From: an uncultured Planctomycetaceae bacterium
Lineage (GTDB): Bacteria; Planctomycetota; Planctomycetia; Pirellulales; Lacipirellulaceae
Assembly: GCA_964650265.1 (NCBI GenBank)
Contig: CAZYQQ010000010.1
Span: 1 to 64,000, forward strand
DNA: 64,000 bases
Reading direction: 5' to 3'
The position numbers were made by a program, and so were the translations under genes. How positions within the stretch are numbered: position 1 is the stretch's first letter; the number at the start of each line of letters is the position of its first letter. Positions 43,976 to 58,372 of this stretch are shown one piece after another. The notes under the pieces are model-generated. The model had not been told where the DNA came from. It saw only the letters and a program-made list of their open reading frames with translations, and did no database searches.

Positions 43976-44111
43976 GAAGTTCCACCGAAAAGTAGGTCCC
44001 GCTTGCCGAGCGGGACCTTGCGCGATGCAAGAGCCTCAACCTGCTCTGAGGTCCCGTCCGGCAGACCGGGACCTACTGAATGGTCCGGCAGACGGGACCT
44101 ACTGAATAAGC

Positions 44112-45394: not shown

Positions 45395-45438
45395 AAGGGC
45401 CCCCTTCGATGCGTCGGAGTGGGGCCCTTCGCTTTTTG
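45395..45438 (+). terminator. Terminator-like hairpin AAGGGCCCCC..GGGGCCCTT followed by CGCTTTTTGG.
   Basis: Read directly. No annotated plus-strand gene lies upstream. It could be a small-RNA 3' end. Confidence 0.35.
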
Positions 45439-45486
45439 GAAGTTGGAAGTTGGAAGTTGGAAGTTGGAAGTTGGAAGTTGGAAGTT
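45438..45486. repeat. Seven perfect tandem copies of the heptamer GGAAGTT.
   Basis: (GGAAGTT)x7 directly after the hairpin. The 7-bp unit is not a multiple of three. It lies intergenic, 3' of the HTH gene. Confidence 0.9.
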
Positions 45487-45631
45487 GGAAACGCGTGCCG
45501 CGTTTCCCCTGACCTCTGGCCCCTGACCCCTTTTTTGGGTGTTTTGAGAAATCGATTTCCGCCAAACAATTCGCGCTTTTCTTGCCGTCTCGCGGGGGGT
45601 GAGGCTGTCATGCGAGGGATTTGCGAGCCAG

Positions 45632-46558
45632 TCATTCCAAAAAACCCTTCGACTTTAATTTCTTTTCCCACTCTTCTTGGGTTCCGAAATCGATCTCGAC
45701 GAAGGGGAGCATGCGGGCCAGTTCACGGGTGAAATTGCAGTAGCAGGCCATGAAGGTGTTCTTGATGCGGTGCCGTTGGTCAACATCTGGGATCTCCTCA
45801 TGCAGCCGCGTCAGGAAAGCCAGGCGGAAGTCGCGCAGGGATTGCTGTTTGAACTCTGTCGACATGATCGCCTTCTTTTGATCGTCGCTCAGCCTGTTGA
45901 GCAGGAACGCCGCGGCGCGCCAGTTTGACCTTGCCTTTTGGCGAATCGAATTGATCGGCTCCATTTCGGCTTCCATCTCGGCCCGGCACAGTTTCTCGGC
46001 GAATGCGGGGTCGCGACGCTTTTCGTTGGCGATGGTTTCGTCACTACACCCCACGTACCTGCTCGCACGGGTAATGCTGGCGCCGGCAGCGACCAGGGCA
46101 CAGATTTCCCGTTTTTTCGCTTCGTCGAGCACGCGGGGGCGGCCCGGTTTTTTCGACGCGGCGGTGGGTGGAGGGGGATCAGCCGCCGGCGACGCGTCAA
46201 ACGTGGGAAAAGTGAGTGGGGGTCGCGGATCGTTCATCACATGCTCCTTTCTCGGGGGCAGCGTTACAGGCTGCCGGTCGGATTCTGGTGCCCGGCCACT
46301 GGCGACCGGGCATGTGGTCAACAGTATACTACTCGCACTGGAGCCTTCTTGGGCAATTTTTGGGCACGCACCGCCCCACTGGCTAAAGGTCGGCCGCCGC
46401 TCCCGGCGGACCGGGACGCGCCCCTCCGTCGGCTCCTCCTTCACCCGGACAAGTTCGGCCCCCGGGTTGGCCGCCACCAGGGCACCAGATCCGGTGGCTG
46501 TTGGTTCTGGGGCTTTGGGTTCCGGGGTTTTGCGGCGTCGACGTCGTATACGGCTCAT
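45632..46558 (-). CDS. Pro-rich protein with a resolvase/Hin-type helix-turn-helix (GRPRVLDEAKKREICALVAAGASITRASRYVGCSDETI) and no recognisable catalytic domain.
   Basis: GRPR + HTH pattern. The N-terminal region is disordered. It sits at the edge of the low-GC island. The start is uncertain (track ORF extends to 46636). Confidence 0.45.
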   Translation of the reverse strand: MSRIRRRRRKTPEPKAPEPTATGSGALVAANPGAELVRVKEEPTEGRVPVRRERRPTFSQWGGACPKIAQEGSSASSILLTTCPVASGRAPESDRQPVTLPPRKEHVMNDPRPPLTFPTFDASPAADPPPPTAASKKPGRPRVLDEAKKREICALVAAGASITRASRYVGCSDETIANEKRRDPAFAEKLCRAEMEAEMEPINSIRQKARSNWRAAAFLLNRLSDDQKKAIMSTEFKQQSLRDFRLAFLTRLHEEIPDVDQRHRIKNTFMACYCNFTRELARMLPFVEIDFGTQEEWEKKLKSKGFLE

Positions 46559-47524
46559 GGCAGGGGTTCTCCGGTAGATTGGAAAGGAAAGGGAAGAACA
46601 GGGGTACCCGGCGGTAGAGATACACCGGTACACCAAAAATCCAAGCTACCGGGCGGGGTGCCCGATTTCGACAAGAAAGTGGGGAGAAAGTGGGAAATCG
46701 CGTGGGGGAAGGGGATTTCAGAGATTTTTAGTGTGGCGCGACCGTTTCGGTCGCGAAGATTGGAGTCGCATCGAAGTACCCCTTTTTGCTATCTTACCAG
46801 CTTTAGTCATGCCAGCCCGCAAGGATGCGTCTGAGTTCATGCTACACCATCGCGAACTTTCCAAGCCGCATCTTCGACTACTTCGAGTTTACCGCCGAAA
46901 TCGAGAAGATTCGCGAGTCGAACATCCTCTACCTGATCGTCTCCAAGTTTGCTGACGTTGACTTGAGCCGTATGCTGACAGGTACCTAGGGCTCCAGAAG
47001 CGAAATGGCGGGTTTGCAATGCTTCCATTCACAACCAAGAACAAGTATTCGCGCTAGATTGGGTTCCGGTATCTGATTGTTCGACTGATTTGCGCATCGA
47101 ACTCCTCGATTATGTCGATGCACTTCTTAAATCGCTTGTCGTCTCAAATGAAGAGTATGTCCCTGAATTAGAGCAAGCGGTGGCAAAGGCCCACCGAGTG
47201 CTTGAGAGCCTTGGAATTACCAAGGCCAAGTAGTGCTTCGAACTTCTCTCGCACTCAATTCAGTAGTCCCTCGATGGAACATTTTATTCCAGCGGTAATG
47301 ACGGTCATCATGGCTATTGGGGTGTGGATTCAGTATTGGAGCTACCGCGATCAACACAAAGCTCCACCACCGCCACCCGACGAGACACGCAGTAACTGAG
47401 TCGACCGCGCCCGGCGACCCTATGTCAGGCTTCCGCAAAGTTGCTCCATCCCTAATAATGGTGCCACCTCCACGGATCAGGAGGTCAATTGCATCAATAA
47501 ACGCTGAGTCGTGGGCACCGCGAT

Positions 47525-50500
47525 ATGCTGGACTTGAAAACGGCCATTGCTCGCTTTGGCGCCGACGCGAAAGCAAAACTCGCCAATCCGGCCGCAACCG
47601 GCGAGCCGGAGGATCAACTCCGCGCTCCGCTGGAAGCGCTCTTTGCCGATTTGGCCGAGCTTTGCGGATTCAAACGCGATTGGGTCACGGCAGTCGGTGA
47701 ATCGTCGCTTTCCGCGCTCAAGACTCGGCCCGATTACGCGATCACCTTGCGAAACGTCCTCGTCGGTTATGTGGAGATCAAGGCACCGGGCAAGGGAGCC
47801 GACCCGCGTCGCTACAAAGGGCATGACAAGGAGCAATGGGAAAAGCTACAGTCGCTCCCGAACTTGTTGTATACCGACGGCAACGCCTTCAGCCTTTGGC
47901 AGGATGGGGAGCTCGTCGGTTCGATCGTTGAACTGGAGGGGGATGTCGAAACTTCGGGAGGCAAGCTCGCCGCTCCACTCGAGTTGGTGGCCCGGTTCGA
48001 CAACTTTTTGCGCTGGGAACCGATTCCGCCGAAATCGGCAGCGGAGTTAGCCAAGGTCTCCGCCCGGCTCTGCCGTCTATTGCGCGATGAAGTGACCGAG
48101 CAACTGGCGGAGAAAGATCCCGCCCTCACCGATCTCGCGGCCGATTGGCGCCACCTCCTGTTTCCCGAAGCGAACGACGCCCAGTTTGCCGATGGCTACG
48201 CCCAGGCCGTGACCTTCGGCTTGCTGATGGCACGGTCGAGCGATATCAAACTCGCTGGCGGGCTCGACCAGGTTGGCAAGCAACTTGGCAAGACCAACTC
48301 GCTGATCGGTGCCGCCTTGCGTCTGCTTACCGACGAAGTCGGCAGCGAGTCGACGCTCAAGACTTCGCTCGGCGCCTTGGTCCGGGTGCTCGATTCAGTC
48401 AATTGGCTAGCGATCAGCAAGGGGAATCCCGATGCCTGGCTCTATTTCTACGAAGACTTCCTAGCCGTTTACGACAACCGGCTGCGAAAGCTCACGGGGT
48501 CCTACTACACGCCGCCAGAGGTAGTCGAGCCAATGATTCGGCTCGTCGACGACGTGCTCCGGAAGTATTTCGCTCGCAGTGCCGGGCTTGCCTCTGCCGA
48601 CGTGACCCTTGCCGACCCCGCCGTGGGGACAGGCACGTTCATCCTGGGCGTGCTCCGCCGCATTGCCGCCGACGTCGAGGCCGACCAGGGTCCGGGTGCT
48701 GTGCCGCAGGCAATTGAGTCGGCCATCGGGCGACTGATTGCGTTTGAGATGCAACTCGGACCCTTTGCGGTGGCTCAGCTTCGTGTGTTCGCCGAGCTGA
48801 GGGAACTGATGGGCAAGCCACCCCGCGCCGTCCCCAGGATGTTTGTTACCGACACGCTCGATAACCCCTACGCCAAAGTCGAGGAGATGGGGTCACTCTA
48901 CCGGACAATCTCGCAATCCCGACTGCAGGCCAACGAGATCAAGGCGAACGAGCCGATTACCGTCGTGATCGGCAATCCCCCCTACAAGGAGAAAGCGAAA
49001 GGACGTGGCGGCTGGGTTGAAGAAGAGCAGCTTAGTAAATGGATGCCGCCCGCCGCTTGGGGTGTCGGAGCCCATGCCAAGCATCTTCGCAATCTCTATG
49101 TCTATTTTTGGCGGTGGGCGACGTGGAAGGTGTTCGACCGTGACGCACCTAACGATACAGGGGTCGTCTGCTTCATCACGGTCGCTGGCTTTTTGAATGG
49201 CCCCGGCTTTCAAGGAATGCGGGCCTATTTGCGCGAGAAGGCCGACCGCATCTGGGTTGTCGACTGCACGCCAGAGGGGCACCAACCGGATGTGCCGACG
49301 CGGATCTTCCAGGGGGTGCAGCAGCCTGTTTGTATCGTGCTGGCGGCGCGATCGAAGTCAAAAGGGGTCAAAAAGCCGGCTACGGTGAAGTACACACTGC
49401 TACCCGCCGGCAAGCGGGAAGAGAAGTTTGCGTCGCTCGCGAAGCTCAAGTTGAATTCAAAGGCATGGCAAGAATGCTCGACCGACTGGCGAGCCCCGTT
49501 TCTTCCCGCCGCCACGGGCGATTGGGTAAGCTACCCTGCACTCGACGAATTATTCGCTTACAACGGCTCGGGGGTCATGCCAGGGCGCACATGGATTATA
49601 GCTCCAGATGCGGAATCGCTGCACCTGCGCTGGCGAATATTGACGAGGGCGAAACCTGACCAAAAGCAAGATCTGTTCGTACCACACCTGAACAAGGGAA
49701 AGCTGGGGGATCGCCACATCGATCGCGAAGTGAAGAAGGGTCTACCCGGTTACCCTGATAATGCAACTTCCATTGCAAATGAACGAGGTAATTCTCTGGC
49801 CCCCGTTTTATATGGATTTCGATCATTTGATCGACAGTGGATCATTCCCGACAATCGCGTTCTCAATCGCCCAAACCCCGAGTTGTGGCGCTCTCACGGC
49901 ACACACCAGCTGTATTTAACGGCGCCGAGCGATCGTTCACCCACGGCCGGACCGGCGATTTCGTTCACAACGGGCATTCCCGATTTGCACCACTACAACG
50001 GCCGTGGCGGGCGTGTATTTCCCCTTTGGCGAGACTCAGAAACTACGCAGCCCAATCTGCCGCCCAAGCTCCTGGAGTTCTTGTCGGCAACCTACAAGAG
50101 ACCCGTCGCACCAGAGGACGTCGTCGCCTATCTGGCGGGCGTGGCCGCCAATCCCGCCTATACCGCGAGATTTCAGGACGATCTTGCCCAACCCGGACTG
50201 CGGATTCCGTTCACGGCCGAGCCAAGTCTATTTGCAAAAGCGGTCGAACTCGGTCGGCGTGTTATCTGGCTTCACACGTTTGGTGAGCGGTTTGCCGATC
50301 GCAAGGGGGGTCGACCTCCAGGGCCACCGAGACTGCTGAAAGACCGGGCTCCGCGGATTCCGAAGGATGGGGCCATTCCGGACGACCCGGAGTCGATGCC
50401 CGACACCATGACCTACGACGAAGCGCACCGCCGCTTGAACGTTGGGGCTGGGTTTATCGAGAATGTGCCCCGCGAAGTGTGGCAATACGAAGTCTCCGGG

Positions 50501-50740
50501 AAGCGGGTGTTGACGCAGTGGTTCAGCTATCGTAAGAAGAATCGTGAGCGGCCAATCATCGGCGACCGGCGACCCCCGTCGAAACTCGGCGACATCCAAC
50601 CCGACCATTGGCTGGCGGAGTACACGACCGAGCTGCTCAACGTGTTGAACGTTCTGGCGATGCTCGTCGAAATGGAGTCGGATCAGGCAAAACTCTTGGA
50701 GGCCATTTGCGATGGGCGGACGATTGATTTCCGTGGATGA
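47525..50740 (+). CDS. Single-polypeptide restriction-modification enzyme of Type IIL/IIG (MmeI-like). N-terminal PD-(D/E)xK endonuclease, gamma-class N6-adenine methyltransferase, and a C-terminal target-recognition region.
   Basis: The nuclease motif is RPDYAI..VGYVEIKAPGK (D..ExK). MTase motif I is DPAVGTGTF and motif IV is VIGNPPY, plus the SYYTPPEVVEPMIRL region. 1071 aa with no helicase motifs. GC is low. Confidence 0.75.
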   Translation: MLDLKTAIARFGADAKAKLANPAATGEPEDQLRAPLEALFADLAELCGFKRDWVTAVGESSLSALKTRPDYAITLRNVLVGYVEIKAPGKGADPRRYKGHDKEQWEKLQSLPNLLYTDGNAFSLWQDGELVGSIVELEGDVETSGGKLAAPLELVARFDNFLRWEPIPPKSAAELAKVSARLCRLLRDEVTEQLAEKDPALTDLAADWRHLLFPEANDAQFADGYAQAVTFGLLMARSSDIKLAGGLDQVGKQLGKTNSLIGAALRLLTDEVGSESTLKTSLGALVRVLDSVNWLAISKGNPDAWLYFYEDFLAVYDNRLRKLTGSYYTPPEVVEPMIRLVDDVLRKYFARSAGLASADVTLADPAVGTGTFILGVLRRIAADVEADQGPGAVPQAIESAIGRLIAFEMQLGPFAVAQLRVFAELRELMGKPPRAVPRMFVTDTLDNPYAKVEEMGSLYRTISQSRLQANEIKANEPITVVIGNPPYKEKAKGRGGWVEEEQLSKWMPPAAWGVGAHAKHLRNLYVYFWRWATWKVFDRDAPNDTGVVCFITVAGFLNGPGFQGMRAYLREKADRIWVVDCTPEGHQPDVPTRIFQGVQQPVCIVLAARSKSKGVKKPATVKYTLLPAGKREEKFASLAKLKLNSKAWQECSTDWRAPFLPAATGDWVSYPALDELFAYNGSGVMPGRTWIIAPDAESLHLRWRILTRAKPDQKQDLFVPHLNKGKLGDRHIDREVKKGLPGYPDNATSIANERGNSLAPVLYGFRSFDRQWIIPDNRVLNRPNPELWRSHGTHQLYLTAPSDRSPTAGPAISFTTGIPDLHHYNGRGGRVFPLWRDSETTQPNLPPKLLEFLSATYKRPVAPEDVVAYLAGVAANPAYTARFQDDLAQPGLRIPFTAEPSLFAKAVELGRRVIWLHTFGERFADRKGGRPPGPPRLLKDRAPRIPKDGAIPDDPESMPDTMTYDEAHRRLNVGAGFIENVPREVWQYEVSGKRVLTQWFSYRKKNRERPIIGDRRPPSKLGDIQPDHWLAEYTTELLNVLNVLAMLVEMESDQAKLLEAICDGRTIDFRG

Positions 50741-50938: not shown

Positions 50939-51601
50939 TCAGACGGCCTCCTCACTGCTTGGCATATCAGGCTGCGGCATAAGAAGATCGGGCCAGTATC
51001 GTTTTCGCAGTCCCTCGTGTACCTTGCTGAGGCTCCAAGGGACAAGTGCAGCAGAGGAGGTGACCTCTTCTCCGCGCGTCAGTCTGACCGTCCAGTCACT
51101 TGCGTAATAGGCGTCCGAATTGAACGTAAGTTGAGGAAACACACTAACGAGACGTTCCGCGTCGTTGTCACGTTTGTTGCGGGTTGTCCACGCGAAGTGC
51201 GCAGCCACCTTGTCGCGGAAAGGCTTTACTTCTGGCAGTACGGCCTTAACGTACGCCTCATTGTCTCGCGCCGGATCGCACTTCTGAGCGATGATATTCA
51301 CCGTGCGGACGTAGTTGCAAGCCGAGACCGCGTACCAATGAAACGCACACGTAAGGAGAGCTTTTGGAATATCCGCATCCATTCCGGAGTTCCCGAAATG
51401 CACCACATGCACACCCTTGGGTGTCCGAGAGGCTACGACGTTCTCAGCACGCTGTACTTGCCGGCACAAGAACTCCATCCCTTCAAACATGCAGAGAAGC
51501 GCCCAGTATTCATTCGTGGGTTCTTCAAACACGTTTCCGGGTACTCTTATGTCGTCGATGTGATCGAGCACCGTAATGTCTAACTCTTTCACGTATGCCA
51601 C
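50939..51601 (-). CDS. Hypothetical protein (220 aa), second gene of a tight two-gene cassette next to the RM gene.
   Basis: Clean ORF in low-GC DNA, 3 nt downstream of the preceding gene. I recognise no motif. Confidence 0.5.
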   Translation of the reverse strand: MAYVKELDITVLDHIDDIRVPGNVFEEPTNEYWALLCMFEGMEFLCRQVQRAENVVASRTPKGVHVVHFGNSGMDADIPKALLTCAFHWYAVSACNYVRTVNIIAQKCDPARDNEAYVKAVLPEVKPFRDKVAAHFAWTTRNKRDNDAERLVSVFPQLTFNSDAYYASDWTVRLTRGEEVTSSAALVPWSLSKVHEGLRKRYWPDLLMPQPDMPSSEEAV

Positions 51602-51604
51602 GTT

Positions 51605-52213
51605 TCAACTCCTTTCGTCGTCTATTTCCACAAAATACTTGTGATGCTCTATCACATTGGCGTACTGCGTAGAAACATTGAGCACATCGCATGCATACAT
51701 CAAGAACGATGCCATGACAAACGGCTCATAGTCTAAAAGCTTCCCAGCGTCTTCTTGGAGTTCGTGGTCAGAGTGGAATATGACGCCGTTAAAGAGGATG
51801 TCGCATATCTTCTGTGGCGTGTAGGGCACTTCGGACCCAGGTGCGCCGATCGCTATCTTTAGTGGAGGGTCCTCCGCTGCCTCCTTCAACGCACTCTTAA
51901 CACGTTTGAAAGTCGGCCGTACATCCTCTGGCGCATACTGGACCAGAATGTTCATCACCCTAAACAGTTGCGTCGGTTCCCGCTTCGCGACTAACTTACG
52001 AAACAATGTGGCAAACGAGCGGAAGTCGTCACGATCATACTCTGGGTACCGGCCTTCTGTACTATCACGAGTAACACGGATCGTATGGTCTTGCTCTCTG
52101 AGTTGTCTGACGAAGCGGCACGCGTGCAGTTCGCCAACAACCTTATGAAAGGCGCGAAGTATTTGTACATTGGTTTGCTTTTGCATCGTTGTCTTTCTCG
52201 CTTGGCCTTCCAT
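51605..52213 (-). CDS. Hypothetical protein (202 aa), first gene of the two-gene cassette.
   Basis: Clean ORF in low-GC DNA. I recognise no motif. Confidence 0.5.
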   Translation of the reverse strand: MEGQARKTTMQKQTNVQILRAFHKVVGELHACRFVRQLREQDHTIRVTRDSTEGRYPEYDRDDFRSFATLFRKLVAKREPTQLFRVMNILVQYAPEDVRPTFKRVKSALKEAAEDPPLKIAIGAPGSEVPYTPQKICDILFNGVIFHSDHELQEDAGKLLDYEPFVMASFLMYACDVLNVSTQYANVIEHHKYFVEIDDERS

Positions 52214-52405
52214 TACTAGATTGTGCGATTGAGATCGAGGTTCGCATCTTGGACTGGATTATATCTCAAAATGTGGATCTCCGAAGGCGCCTACGTCGCT
52301 TTGATTGGTCGAGACAGACCTTTCCGGGTGTGGCACGCGTCCCGGTCTTCGATTAGAAAGCGGGCCGATGGAGCAAATTCCACGACCGGGACGGTCGTAC
52401 CACAC

Positions 52406-53062
52406 TCACCCCACTGGCACCACGCAAATACTCTCCAGCGCCCGCGGCTCCAACCTCAGCGGTGCCGCTCCCAGGTCGAGCGTGCGGCTGCCGTCGGCGT
52501 GGGTTTGTCTTACTTCGCCGGTGACGCCGATGCCGATGCCCGACTCGGTGAGTTCTCGCAGGAACTCGGGGGACTGTTCCAGCACCCGGACGATGCGGAA
52601 CTCCTGGCCGGTGTCGCATTCGGCCAGCGGGATCGCCCCCCACTCGACGATCGCCCCGTCGGCGGTGGGGATCGGGTCGCCGTGGGGGTCGAACTTGGGA
52701 AAACCGAGGAACTGGTCGATCCGATCGACCAGCCGGTCGCTTACGGCGTGCTCCATGTGCTCGGCCTCCTCGTGGACCTCGTCCCAGGTGAGGTCGAGGG
52801 TGTGGGCCAGAAAGTGCTCGATCAGCCGGTGCCGCCTGATAACCCGCAGTGCGAGGGCCCGACCGGCGGAGGTGAGCTGCACCCCTTCGTAGGGGCGGTA
52901 GGTGGCGAGATTGCCATCGGCCAGGGTCTTGAGCATGCTGGTCACCGTGCCGGGGGAGACCCCCATCGCCTCGGCAATCCGGCCGGTCGCGATCGATTGG
53001 CCACCCGTCGCGTCGAGTTGAAAGATGGTCTTGAGATAGTTCTCGACAGTCAGACTCGCCAC
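52406..53062 (-). CDS. DtxR/MntR-family metal-dependent transcriptional repressor with a C-terminal FeoA/SH3-like domain.
   Basis: MASLTVENYLKTIFQL.. HTH. Metal-site residues in ..HEEAEHMEH... C-terminal SH3-like FRIVRV segment. Confidence 0.85.
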   Translation of the reverse strand: MASLTVENYLKTIFQLDATGGQSIATGRIAEAMGVSPGTVTSMLKTLADGNLATYRPYEGVQLTSAGRALALRVIRRHRLIEHFLAHTLDLTWDEVHEEAEHMEHAVSDRLVDRIDQFLGFPKFDPHGDPIPTADGAIVEWGAIPLAECDTGQEFRIVRVLEQSPEFLRELTESGIGIGVTGEVRQTHADGSRTLDLGAAPLRLEPRALESICVVPVG

Positions 53063-53076
53063 GCCGCTCGCCTCCA

Positions 53077-53160
53077 GAAAAAGGTGTCAGGAACCTTTTT
53101 CTTATGTGCATGCCTCACTGCAAAGCGATTTGCTGAAAAAAGGTTCCTGACACCTTTTTC
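53077..53160. repeat. 85-bp paired-palindrome element. Two inverted copies of AAAAAGGTGTCAGGAACCTTTTT are separated by a 33-nt spacer containing GCAAAGCGAT. A second family member is at 58806-58880.
   Basis: Exact reverse-complement arms, read directly. Each 23-bp arm is itself an 8-7-8 palindrome (AAAAAGGT..ACCTTTTT). It lies in the divergent dtxR/hydrolase promoter region, 15 nt upstream of the dtxR start. Confidence 0.7.
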
Positions 53161-57421: not shown

Positions 57422-57895
57422 TCAATTGTGAGTAGTATCAATGCGGCTCGCAAGCCACGCATCGAATGCATAGCTTGTTAGTTCACCGACATCTAATTCA
57501 TCCCAGCATTTTGGCATTTCAGGGACTAGGACGATTTCAGCGTCGTGTTCACTATCCATTTTCAGTAGCAACAACTGCCCTGTCTCACGGTCCCTGCCGA
57601 TAGGTATGTACTTTGAAAAGACGTCGTGCTGCTTTTGCCTAGACCAGGAAGCTACTATATCAAGCATGTCATCAATGCGGCGTAGCTCCAGGCCAACTTG
57701 ACAGTCGCCTAGCGTTGAGAAATAAACGCCGGAGCCGAGTTCACGCAAAAATTCCCTATAAAATCCTGGCAACTTGATCGACCGCTTCTTTTCGATTGCA
57801 AGCAATTCTTCTTCATTGAACTGCTTTTCAACGCCACACCACCCTCGTTCTCTCGTTTGAACACGAGACTTATCGGTTTTTGATCGCTCAACCAT
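57422..57895 (-). CDS. SMI1/KNR4 (SUKH-1) family protein, an immunity-type protein of polymorphic toxin systems, in a low-GC (about 45%) segment.
   Basis: ..EEELLAIEKKRSIKLPGFYREFLRELGSGVYF.. fits the SUKH-1 LP..Y..FL..G pattern. No toxin gene is adjacent. The start was chosen at an internal Met; the track ORF extends to 58075. Confidence 0.6.
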   Translation of the reverse strand: MVERSKTDKSRVQTRERGWCGVEKQFNEEELLAIEKKRSIKLPGFYREFLRELGSGVYFSTLGDCQVGLELRRIDDMLDIVASWSRQKQHDVFSKYIPIGRDRETGQLLLLKMDSEHDAEIVLVPEMPKCWDELDVGELTSYAFDAWLASRIDTTHN

Positions 57896-58372
57896 TCGGC
57901 GGATACTGGATAGTATATGGTGTGACATTTGACGTGGTGAGTTCCTACAGGTCGAAGATGATTTCAAATGGCTCGTTGTTCCTAGCAACTTTCTTGCCGC
58001 TAATGACAAGGGTGCGTGAAGTGAAACGCACCAAATGGCGCCGTACCCCAATCGGTGCGTTCCGCTCCGCTTCACGCACGCTACGGTACTTTCGATCTTT
58101 CGTGATCCTGATAAGCCAATTCAAGACACGAAACCTTGGCTGCCCGCCACGGCCATCCCCCCATCCCACAACATCCCCCGCATCTCCTTTTGGAAACGCC
58201 CCGCTTCGGTGACTCACGTCACCGGCTCAGTGTTGGGACAAAACCAGACACTCCGCTTTCCCCACCCGTCAATATATCAAATTGTCCCCCACCGCCAATC
58301 TTCCTCAAACAAGAGGGGGGGACAATCCCAGACAGGGGGGACAATCCCAGACACGCAACATTCGACAATCCC

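Follow-up and report, generated by a model that had tools for sequence, protein, structure and literature searches.

The two genes considered here, ORF202 and ORF220, lie next to each other on the minus strand of a 64,000-nucleotide stretch of DNA (the window; positions 1 to 64,000 of contig CAZYQQ010000010.1, GenBank assembly GCA_964650265.1) from an uncultured Planctomycetaceae bacterium, between a gene for a restriction-modification (R-M) enzyme and a gene for a metal-dependent repressor (Table 1). A sequence-only reading of this DNA had proposed the pair as a candidate new defence module of two unplaceable proteins. Both open reading frames (ORFs) were found where that reading had put them, with 3 nt between them (51602-51604). 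On the coding strand the junction reads ...GAAAGGAGTTGAAACGTG, and the 3' end of ORF202 contains a strong Shine-Dalgarno sequence for ORF220 (AGGAG), spaced 7 nt from the GTG codon. This is the standard layout for translational coupling and indicates that the two genes are coupled in translation. The homologues of ORF202 and the NCBI gene call begin at Met10 (position 52186), so the product is probably 193 aa long. Homologue matches reach E = 1e-70 to 1e-74 for ORF220 and ORF202, and their AlphaFold2 models have a mean predicted local distance difference test score (pLDDT) of 91.6 and 93.4, respectively. Given these homologues, the confident models, and the Shine-Dalgarno sequence, ORF202 and ORF220 are real genes, not chance ORFs. 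Neither protein has transmembrane helices, in agreement with the first reading. A perfect TATAAT hexamer in the 190-nt spacer upstream of the pair is possibly the -10 box of a putative promoter of its own; the -35 element for this hexamer is poor, and a consensus promoter scan made no call there.

The proteins proved as hard to place as had been reported, with no match for either in Pfam, PADLOC, NCBIfam, or PHROGs, and PADLOC-DB v2.0 gave no known or candidate defence family for either one at E <= 1. The drop in GC noted at the pair is also real (0.49-0.55 in sliding windows, against 0.60-0.68 in the flanks). GC at third codon positions (GC3) is 0.56 for ORF202 and 0.61 for ORF220, 0.69 for the R-M gene and for a 334-aa helix-turn-helix (HTH) gene, and 0.78-0.85 for core genes, while the flanking genes (DUF1501, PQQ/BamB-like, GAF-SpoIIE, and PurE) are those of a typical planctomycete chromosome. 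Judged by its composition, the pair is foreign and horizontally acquired. No RNA components, tandem repeats, att-like flanking repeats, or repeat array were found at the pair. The pair had been placed immediately downstream of the R-M gene; it does adjoin that gene, with a gap of 198 nt to ORF220, but the R-M gene is convergent and on the opposite strand, so the pair is not downstream of it in the transcriptional sense, and the two are not co-transcribed. The gene that it does lie downstream of is the DtxR-like one, which shares its strand, with the 190-nt spacer in between.

Where the sequence-only reading had seen no nuclease motif by eye, an invariant Rx5H motif is present in ORF220. In a set of 29 sequences that reaches down to 30% identity, neither R129 nor H135 varies; in a set of 120, H135 is again invariant, and conservation of R129 is at least 90%. 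The block reads R129-D-K131-V-A-A134-H135, with a family motif of R-[D/N/H]-K-[V/I]-[A/G]-A-H; most sequences have D at position 130, many have N, and one (L038) has H. The signature of HEPN proteins is Rx4-6H, and the residue following the arginine is polar, mostly N, D, or H (PMC3710099, Anantharaman et al.); the Rx5H motif of ORF220, with D, N, or H after the arginine, fits this rule. A HEPN-like fold is also favoured by six further HEPN-superfamily chains (5yep, 6nlt, 1ylm, 8xdj, 3jyy, and 7y16) in the top 60 for ORF220. Residues that are invariant in the alignment down to 30% identity are D13, L35, G41, F87, W89, A91, Y117, R129, K131, A134, H135, D145, S153, and W189. [quoted passage not shown] The structural model consists of two long helices, several short helices in which the R129...H135 block lies, an N-terminal beta-hairpin, and a four-stranded beta-meander. 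Tentatively, ORF220 is called a probable new HEPN family, with a putative HEPN fold and ribonuclease (RNase) activity. The conserved His triad on a four-helix bundle that marks DinB/YfiT-like metalloenzymes was not found in ORF220.

The ORF220 family is large, with at least 361 clusters at 90% identity in a word-indexed search. Relatives occur in 38 species-representative genomes, 22 of them Planctomycetota, 7 Chloroflexota, and 9 from other phyla that include Nitrospirota, Spirochaetota, Desulfobacterota, Rickettsiales, a Candidate Phyla Radiation (CPR) lineage, and Cloacimonadota. The distribution is patchy over at least 10 phylum-level groups, and many relatives share about 50% identity with the protein of the window. 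Searches of phage and plasmid collections by tblastn gave no match to ORF220, nor to ORF202 and three remote members of its superfamily; scans of viral contigs (2.9 million) returned two remote relatives of ORF220 only and no relative of ORF202. Neither family is typical of phages. The spread across phyla, combined with the near-absence from phage, plasmid, and viral sets, suggests that ORF220 is a horizontally mobile cellular gene. In two metagenome-assembled genomes (MAGs), one of Cloacimonadota and one of Sedimentisphaerales, the ORF220 homologue is split into two ORFs (L027, L035); these copies look like pseudogenes broken by a frameshift or stop codon, which fits a gene that can be dispensed with. 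In a Dehalococcoidia MAG (L040) the reading frame of the homologue continues into a C-terminal extension that weakly matches retropepsin-like aspartyl proteases (E = 1.5e-4, below the Pfam cut-off), and this could be a fusion.

The neighbourhoods of ORF220 are varied. An all-against-all BLAST of flanking ORFs found no conserved, recurring neighbour: apart from alternate-frame artefacts it returned only one ABC-ATPase family, at 4 loci, and integrases, at 3. Nor did R-M genes recur among the genes closest to ORF220 at 44 loci. Some loci are clearly of the defence or mobile-element kind: one has ArdC, integrases, and AbiJ (L011), another PDDEXK, DUF932, a giant helicase-DUF559 protein, and HsdM (L008), and a third HNH and an antitoxin-like gene (L002). 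In a bulk annotation of 137 nearest neighbours, DEAD/ResIII helicases were found 4 times, integrases 3 times, and Abi_C and HNH twice each.

ORF202 has a small close family (34 clusters in a profile search), which is one branch of a large superfamily. In an exhaustive profile search, 850 representatives passed E <= 1e-3 and 208 passed E <= 1e-10; most of these proteins stand alone and are 185-215 aa long. A metagenome scan for ORF202 added two weak loci only. Superfamily-wide, only R72 is invariant, with N142, F146, and H147 at least 90% conserved (an 'NGxxFHxD' block), and the close family is also invariant at D60, D62, K73, E79, and P133; these residues look like a predicted active site or ligand-binding site. 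By profile-profile comparison the ORF202 and ORF220 families are unrelated, and, held against the Rx4-6H motif and a HEPN-like fold, ORF202 does not qualify as a HEPN protein: the motif arginine is absent and N-x4-H stands in its place. Two proteins of the superfamily carry HEAT repeats.

Some relatives of ORF202 lie in clear defence settings. An HsdS protein with two target recognition domains has an ORF202-like domain at its C-terminus (E = 5e-49) and is encoded inside a Type I R-M island; a true R-M fusion was seen only for this ORF202-like domain, in one locus. Inserted genes crowd that island (L058; also L059 and L060), which runs HsdM, SLFN_AlbA_2, HsdS::ORF202-like, a 40-aa ORF, a pPIWI-associated nuclease (pP_pnuc_1), an M78 peptidase, DUF4411, HsdR, and an AAA_13 ATPase. 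Elsewhere the gene following the ORF202 relative differs. It is an AlbA_2/Schlafen-like (SLFN_AlbA_2) gene near TIR and PDDEXK genes in L004, a zinc-ribbon and trypsin-like protein in L005 and L007, an 80-aa transmembrane protein in L055, and a DUF5677 protein in L061, and in L056 nothing follows on the same strand. The 339-aa protein of L005 and L007 has an N-terminal CxxC...CxxxxC zinc ribbon, the motifs ..AGHT.. and ..GMSGGG.., and no Pfam match, and may be an unannotated protease effector. In L056, Nramp and DUF892 (ferritin-like) genes are about 2 kb away from the ORF202 relative, beyond a DDE transposase and a group II intron maturase; this and the DtxR/MntR gene of the window may be a coincidental metal-homeostasis neighbourhood.

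A second copy of the pair lies on one unrelated contig, L001. Gene order there is unchanged, the genes overlap by 8 nt (ATGGCTGA), and both proteins are 54-56% identical to those of the window. Chance cannot account for such a recurrence of two rare families, and their coupling twice, in unrelated contexts and at similar divergence, is unlikely without selection for co-expression. Directly upstream of the pair in L001 is a gene for a 585-aa protein with a C-terminal PNP_UDP_1 phosphorylase domain, which matches the PADLOC 'Effector PN-superfamily' and the candidate system PDC-M60C; downstream are two PT-HINT polymorphic-toxin genes and a Uma2 endonuclease gene. Of the traits of type II toxin-antitoxin systems, the pair has two small, adjacent, co-directional genes with coupled translation; consistent co-occurrence of both families across genomes was not found. 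The idea of a conserved two-gene module near R-M genes did not survive, as the pairing is rare, adjacency to R-M genes is not conserved, and the R-M gene in the window is convergent. The broader proposal of a candidate defence module was borne out in part. The genes are real, foreign, unannotated, and coupled, they recur together in L001, relatives of ORF202 lie in defence settings, and ORF220 is a plausible effector; the module is nonetheless not conserved, and the neighbourhoods of ORF220 are mixed, with housekeeping genes and a smaller share of defence or mobile-element genes. The sequence evidence leaves a plausible, only occasional defence-type pairing of two usually separate families.

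The analysis establishes that the genes are real, coupled, and foreign in composition, how large and how widespread their families are, that the pair recurs, and that each gene mostly lives without the other. We infer for this pairing a HEPN fold, RNase activity, a control relationship, and a role in defence. The reading that we prefer, tentatively and at somewhat less than an even chance, is that of a facultative toxin-antitoxin-like or abortive-infection-like operon in which ORF202 controls a HEPN-like RNase, ORF220. On this reading, two gene families that are mostly found separately have come together in a small operon acquired by horizontal transfer. ORF220 would most likely be the effector, a HEPN-like metal-independent RNase with Arg129 and His135 as catalytic residues and a catalytic site probably formed across a dimer interface, as in other HEPN enzymes; the small beta subdomain on its helical core could serve regulation or substrate binding. 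When active, ORF220 would cleave cellular or invader RNA and bring growth to a halt, with a toxin or abortive-infection outcome. ORF202, which is translated just ahead of ORF220 and coupled to it, most likely restrains or licenses the RNase; it belongs to a helical superfamily with a conserved Arg/Asn/His/Asp cluster that recurs in restriction-modification and defence islands. The Type IIG enzyme would be an island neighbour rather than a functional partner. In favour of this reading are the reality, coupling, and foreign origin of the genes, the HEPN motif of ORF220, the precedent of HEPN clades linked to R-M systems (PMC3710099), the second copy of the pair in L001, the defence settings of ORF202 relatives, and the fact that neither family is typical of phages.

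A number of observations weigh against this operon. The two families are rarely found together: in the 38 representative genomes the 10 kb around the ORF220 relative never include an ORF202 relative, the pair was seen in the window and L001 only, being absent from all other ORF220 loci examined and from 7 of the 9 distinct ORF202 contexts, and the ORF220 proteins of the window and L001 are not each other's nearest relatives. ORF220 is mostly solitary, whereas a constitutively toxic RNase should need a partner everywhere. ORF202 has no DNA-binding or known antitoxin fold or domain. As to the fold of ORF220, Foldseek against the PDB gave nothing significant (best E = 1.4), with HEPN toxins only in the noise (TM score <= 0.37), no HEPN-type Pfam family was matched by any of the 120 ORF220 members at E <= 10, nor any Pfam HEPN model by ORF202-family members even at E <= 10, and PDB profile searches with four alignments returned only chance matches (NohD, PIP5K, tocopherol-transfer protein, and similar). 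Many of the 137 neighbours of ORF220 are housekeeping genes (Hsp70, cytochrome bd, chorismate synthase, and others). Pfam at relaxed thresholds on all 120, 33, and 133 family members showed no consistent family.

Some of these points would be expected if the two genes were independent single-gene island cargo, each autonomous with a defence or accessory role and sharing one transcription unit without functional interaction. Each family is overwhelmingly found without the other, no gene recurs beside ORF220, the genes that follow ORF202 relatives are unrelated, and the two paired ORF220 proteins are not sister sequences. Yet the genes are adjacent twice in unrelated contexts, in the same order, coupled both times (a 3-nt gap with an internal Shine-Dalgarno sequence in one, an 8-nt overlap in the other), and alike in divergence (54-56%), and we consider independent cargo unlikely, though with a real share of the probability. 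The housekeeping neighbours would also suit a role outside defence, in which ORF220 is a four-helix-bundle enzyme or binding protein (DinB-like, for example, or related to metal or stress) and ORF202 an unrelated helical enzyme, the two serving accessory metabolism or stress and perhaps tied to the metal regulator. Weak DinB matches in 3 of the 120 ORF220 members (E ~0.09), several conserved His, Asp, and Glu residues, the position of the pair after the DtxR/MntR gene, and the one ORF202 relative near Nramp and DUF892 genes are in keeping with such a role, which we regard as improbable.

Conflict of another polarity has to be considered as well, with the pair as immunity proteins against polymorphic toxins or as anti-restriction or anti-defence cargo of integrative elements. 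Some ORF220 relatives do lie in regions of integrative or conjugative type (ArdC, DUF932, integrases, PDDEXK), the PT-HINT polymorphic-toxin genes of L001 are a few kb from the pair, and in the window a SUKH gene of immunity type is 5 kb away. In no locus, however, is a toxin gene directly adjacent; both families have invariant residues of catalytic type, which are atypical for immunity proteins; plasmid and phage collections gave no matches and viral contigs almost none; and the window has no tRNA, and its locus neither an integrase nor a conjugation gene. We hold this explanation less probable still. Lastly, both proteins could be divergent HEPN-type proteins that form a heterodimeric RNase, with a canonical R..H half-site from ORF220 and, from ORF202, a non-canonical half-site (N-x4-H plus a distal invariant Arg) that gates activity, an arrangement that we rate as a long shot. 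The ~850-cluster ORF202 superfamily would then be an unrecognised, R-M-coupled regulatory HEPN-like clade serving varied effectors, an idea that comes from the HsdS fusion; if true, the clade could plug into a HEPN protein, a Schlafen/AlbA_2 protein, a protease, or a small membrane protein.

Of the neighbours of the pair, the R-M gene matches PADLOC REase_MTase_IIG (PDLC03631, E = 0, residues 7-1065) and the Pfam families Type_ISP_C, N6_Mtase, and Eco57I, and its translation shows PD..ExK (D70, E84, K86; E84-I-K86) and NPPY. It has the Type IIG layout, with an N-terminal nuclease, a gamma-class N6-adenine methyltransferase, and a C-terminal Type ISP-like specificity domain in one polypeptide. 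The gene had been called MmeI-like; it does encode an intact restriction endonuclease-methyltransferase (REase-MTase), but no MmeI-named Pfam model was matched at E <= 1, so 'Type IIG' is the safer label. The metal-regulator gene reported on the other side of the pair is indeed there, a DtxR/MntR-type repressor with a FeoA domain, and its GC3 (0.85) is a core-genome value. The divergent intergenic region between this gene and an alpha/beta-hydrolase gene holds an inverted repeat whose two 24-nt arms (GAAAAAGGTGTCAGGAACCTTTTT / AAAAAGGTTCCTGACACCTTTTTC) match perfectly and stand 36 nt apart; this repeat could be an operator or a bidirectional terminator-like element.

Other features of the window lie further from the pair. 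The SUKH/SMI1_KNR4 gene (polymorphic-toxin immunity type) lies in a second low-GC islet (GC 0.48, GC3 0.49). An exact heptamer tandem repeat (TTGGAAG, 7.9 copies) occupies a low-GC stretch beside the 334-aa HTH gene, whose product is weakly similar to the Sf6 small terminase/HTH_23; this stretch may be a remnant of a mobile element that brought in the R-M gene. A 26-nt direct repeat in two copies, overlapping short inverted repeats, sits at the left edge of the low-GC variable region.

Table 1. Coordinates of the gene pair, its neighbours in the window, and features of related contigs.
Feature	Sequence	Position	Strand	Remarks
ORF220, downstream gene	window	50939..51601	(-)	220 aa, GTG start; large unannotated family; candidate HEPN-type RNase
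ORF202, upstream gene	window	51605..52213	(-)	202 aa from first ATG; all-helical protein, unannotated superfamily
AGGAG Shine-Dalgarno for ORF220	window	51609..51613	(-)	in ORF202 3' end, 7 nt before GTG; read from sequence
TATAAT hexamer, perfect	window	52258..52263	(-)	~45 nt 5' of ORF202 first ATG; possible -10 box
Type IIG REase-MTase, intact	window	47525..50740	(+)	context; PADLOC, Pfam, motifs
DtxR/MntR-family metal-dependent repressor with FeoA domain	window	52406..53062	(-)	context; upstream of pair
24-nt inverted repeat	window	53077-53100 / 53137-53160		perfect
SUKH/SMI1_KNR4 gene	window	57422-58075	(-)	~5 kb from pair
334-aa HTH gene	window	45632-46636		
Heptamer tandem repeat	window	45436-45490		
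26-nt direct repeat	window	44056-44107		two copies
Short inverted repeats	window	43991-44103		overlapped by the direct repeat
585-aa protein gene	L001	765-2522		directly upstream of pair
Split ORF220 homologue	L027	9965-10597		Cloacimonadota MAG
Split ORF220 homologue	L035	9932-10641		Sedimentisphaerales MAG
ORF220 homologue with extension	L040	9713-11074		Dehalococcoidia MAG
339-aa protein gene	L005	8820-9839		
339-aa protein gene	L007	1279-2298		
ORF202 relative, Nramp and DUF892 region	L056	1862-6564		
Type I R-M island	L058	1-11646		also L059, L060

If confirmed, ORF220 would be a new HEPN family that is absent from the family libraries searched and concentrated in the poorly studied Planctomycetota and Chloroflexota, and ORF202 would open the way to a superfamily of ~850 clusters that is unannotated and wired into restriction-modification loci, the HsdS fusion included. 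The theme of restriction backed by an RNA-targeting second line would then extend to lineages with almost no tested defence biology, and the facultative pairing would show how island genes combine into new operons.

Among known systems, the pair would work most like two kinds of HEPN toxin module, HepT/MntA and the solitary HEPN Abi proteins. The first kind is the HEPN-MNT (HepT/MntA) type II/VII toxin-antitoxin system, for example SO_3166/SO_3165 (PDB 5yep, 7ae2; PMC4621449). In contrast to MntA, ORF202 is not a minimal nucleotidyltransferase but an unrelated all-helical protein. ORF220 is about 90 residues longer than HepT, has added beta elements, matches no DUF86/HEPN profile, and lacks the Tyr two residues after the His of the HepT motif RX4HXY (F-A-W in ORF220), and the ORF202-ORF220 pairing is facultative, not obligatory. 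Like the single-gene HEPN proteins AbiJ, AbiU2, AbiV, and ApeA (PMC3710099; bioRxiv 10.1101/2024.05.05.592566; 10.64898/2026.03.20.713152), ORF220 is mostly solitary, has spread horizontally, and is sometimes found in R-M or defence neighbourhoods; like them, too, it would have a putative HEPN-like core with an extra domain, possibly a sensor. Unlike them, ORF220 has no Abi_C, AbiJ_NTD, AbiU2, AbiV, or ApeA match in Pfam or PADLOC, and its family is confined to uncultured members of Planctomycetota, Chloroflexota, and lineages like them. The position of a putative RNase gene beside an R-M enzyme recalls the R-M-linked HEPN anticodon nucleases PrrC-EcoprrI and RloC, and the ORF202-like helical domain fused to HsdS recalls DUF4145 fused to REase or helicase subunits (PMC3710099). 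However, the pair has no ABC-ATPase domain, is transcribed separately from and convergently with the R-M gene, and shows no conserved R-M adjacency for ORF220, and ORF202 does not match DUF4145. Because of the missing profile match, the partner that is not an MNT protein, the lack of an ABC ATPase, and an R-M linkage that is not conserved, ORF220 and the pair cannot be filed in known HEPN families. At least 16 HEPN clades have been linked to R-M systems (PMC3710099), and HEPN genes beside R-M genes are an already known theme; what would be new here is a probable HEPN family with a partner from an unannotated superfamily.
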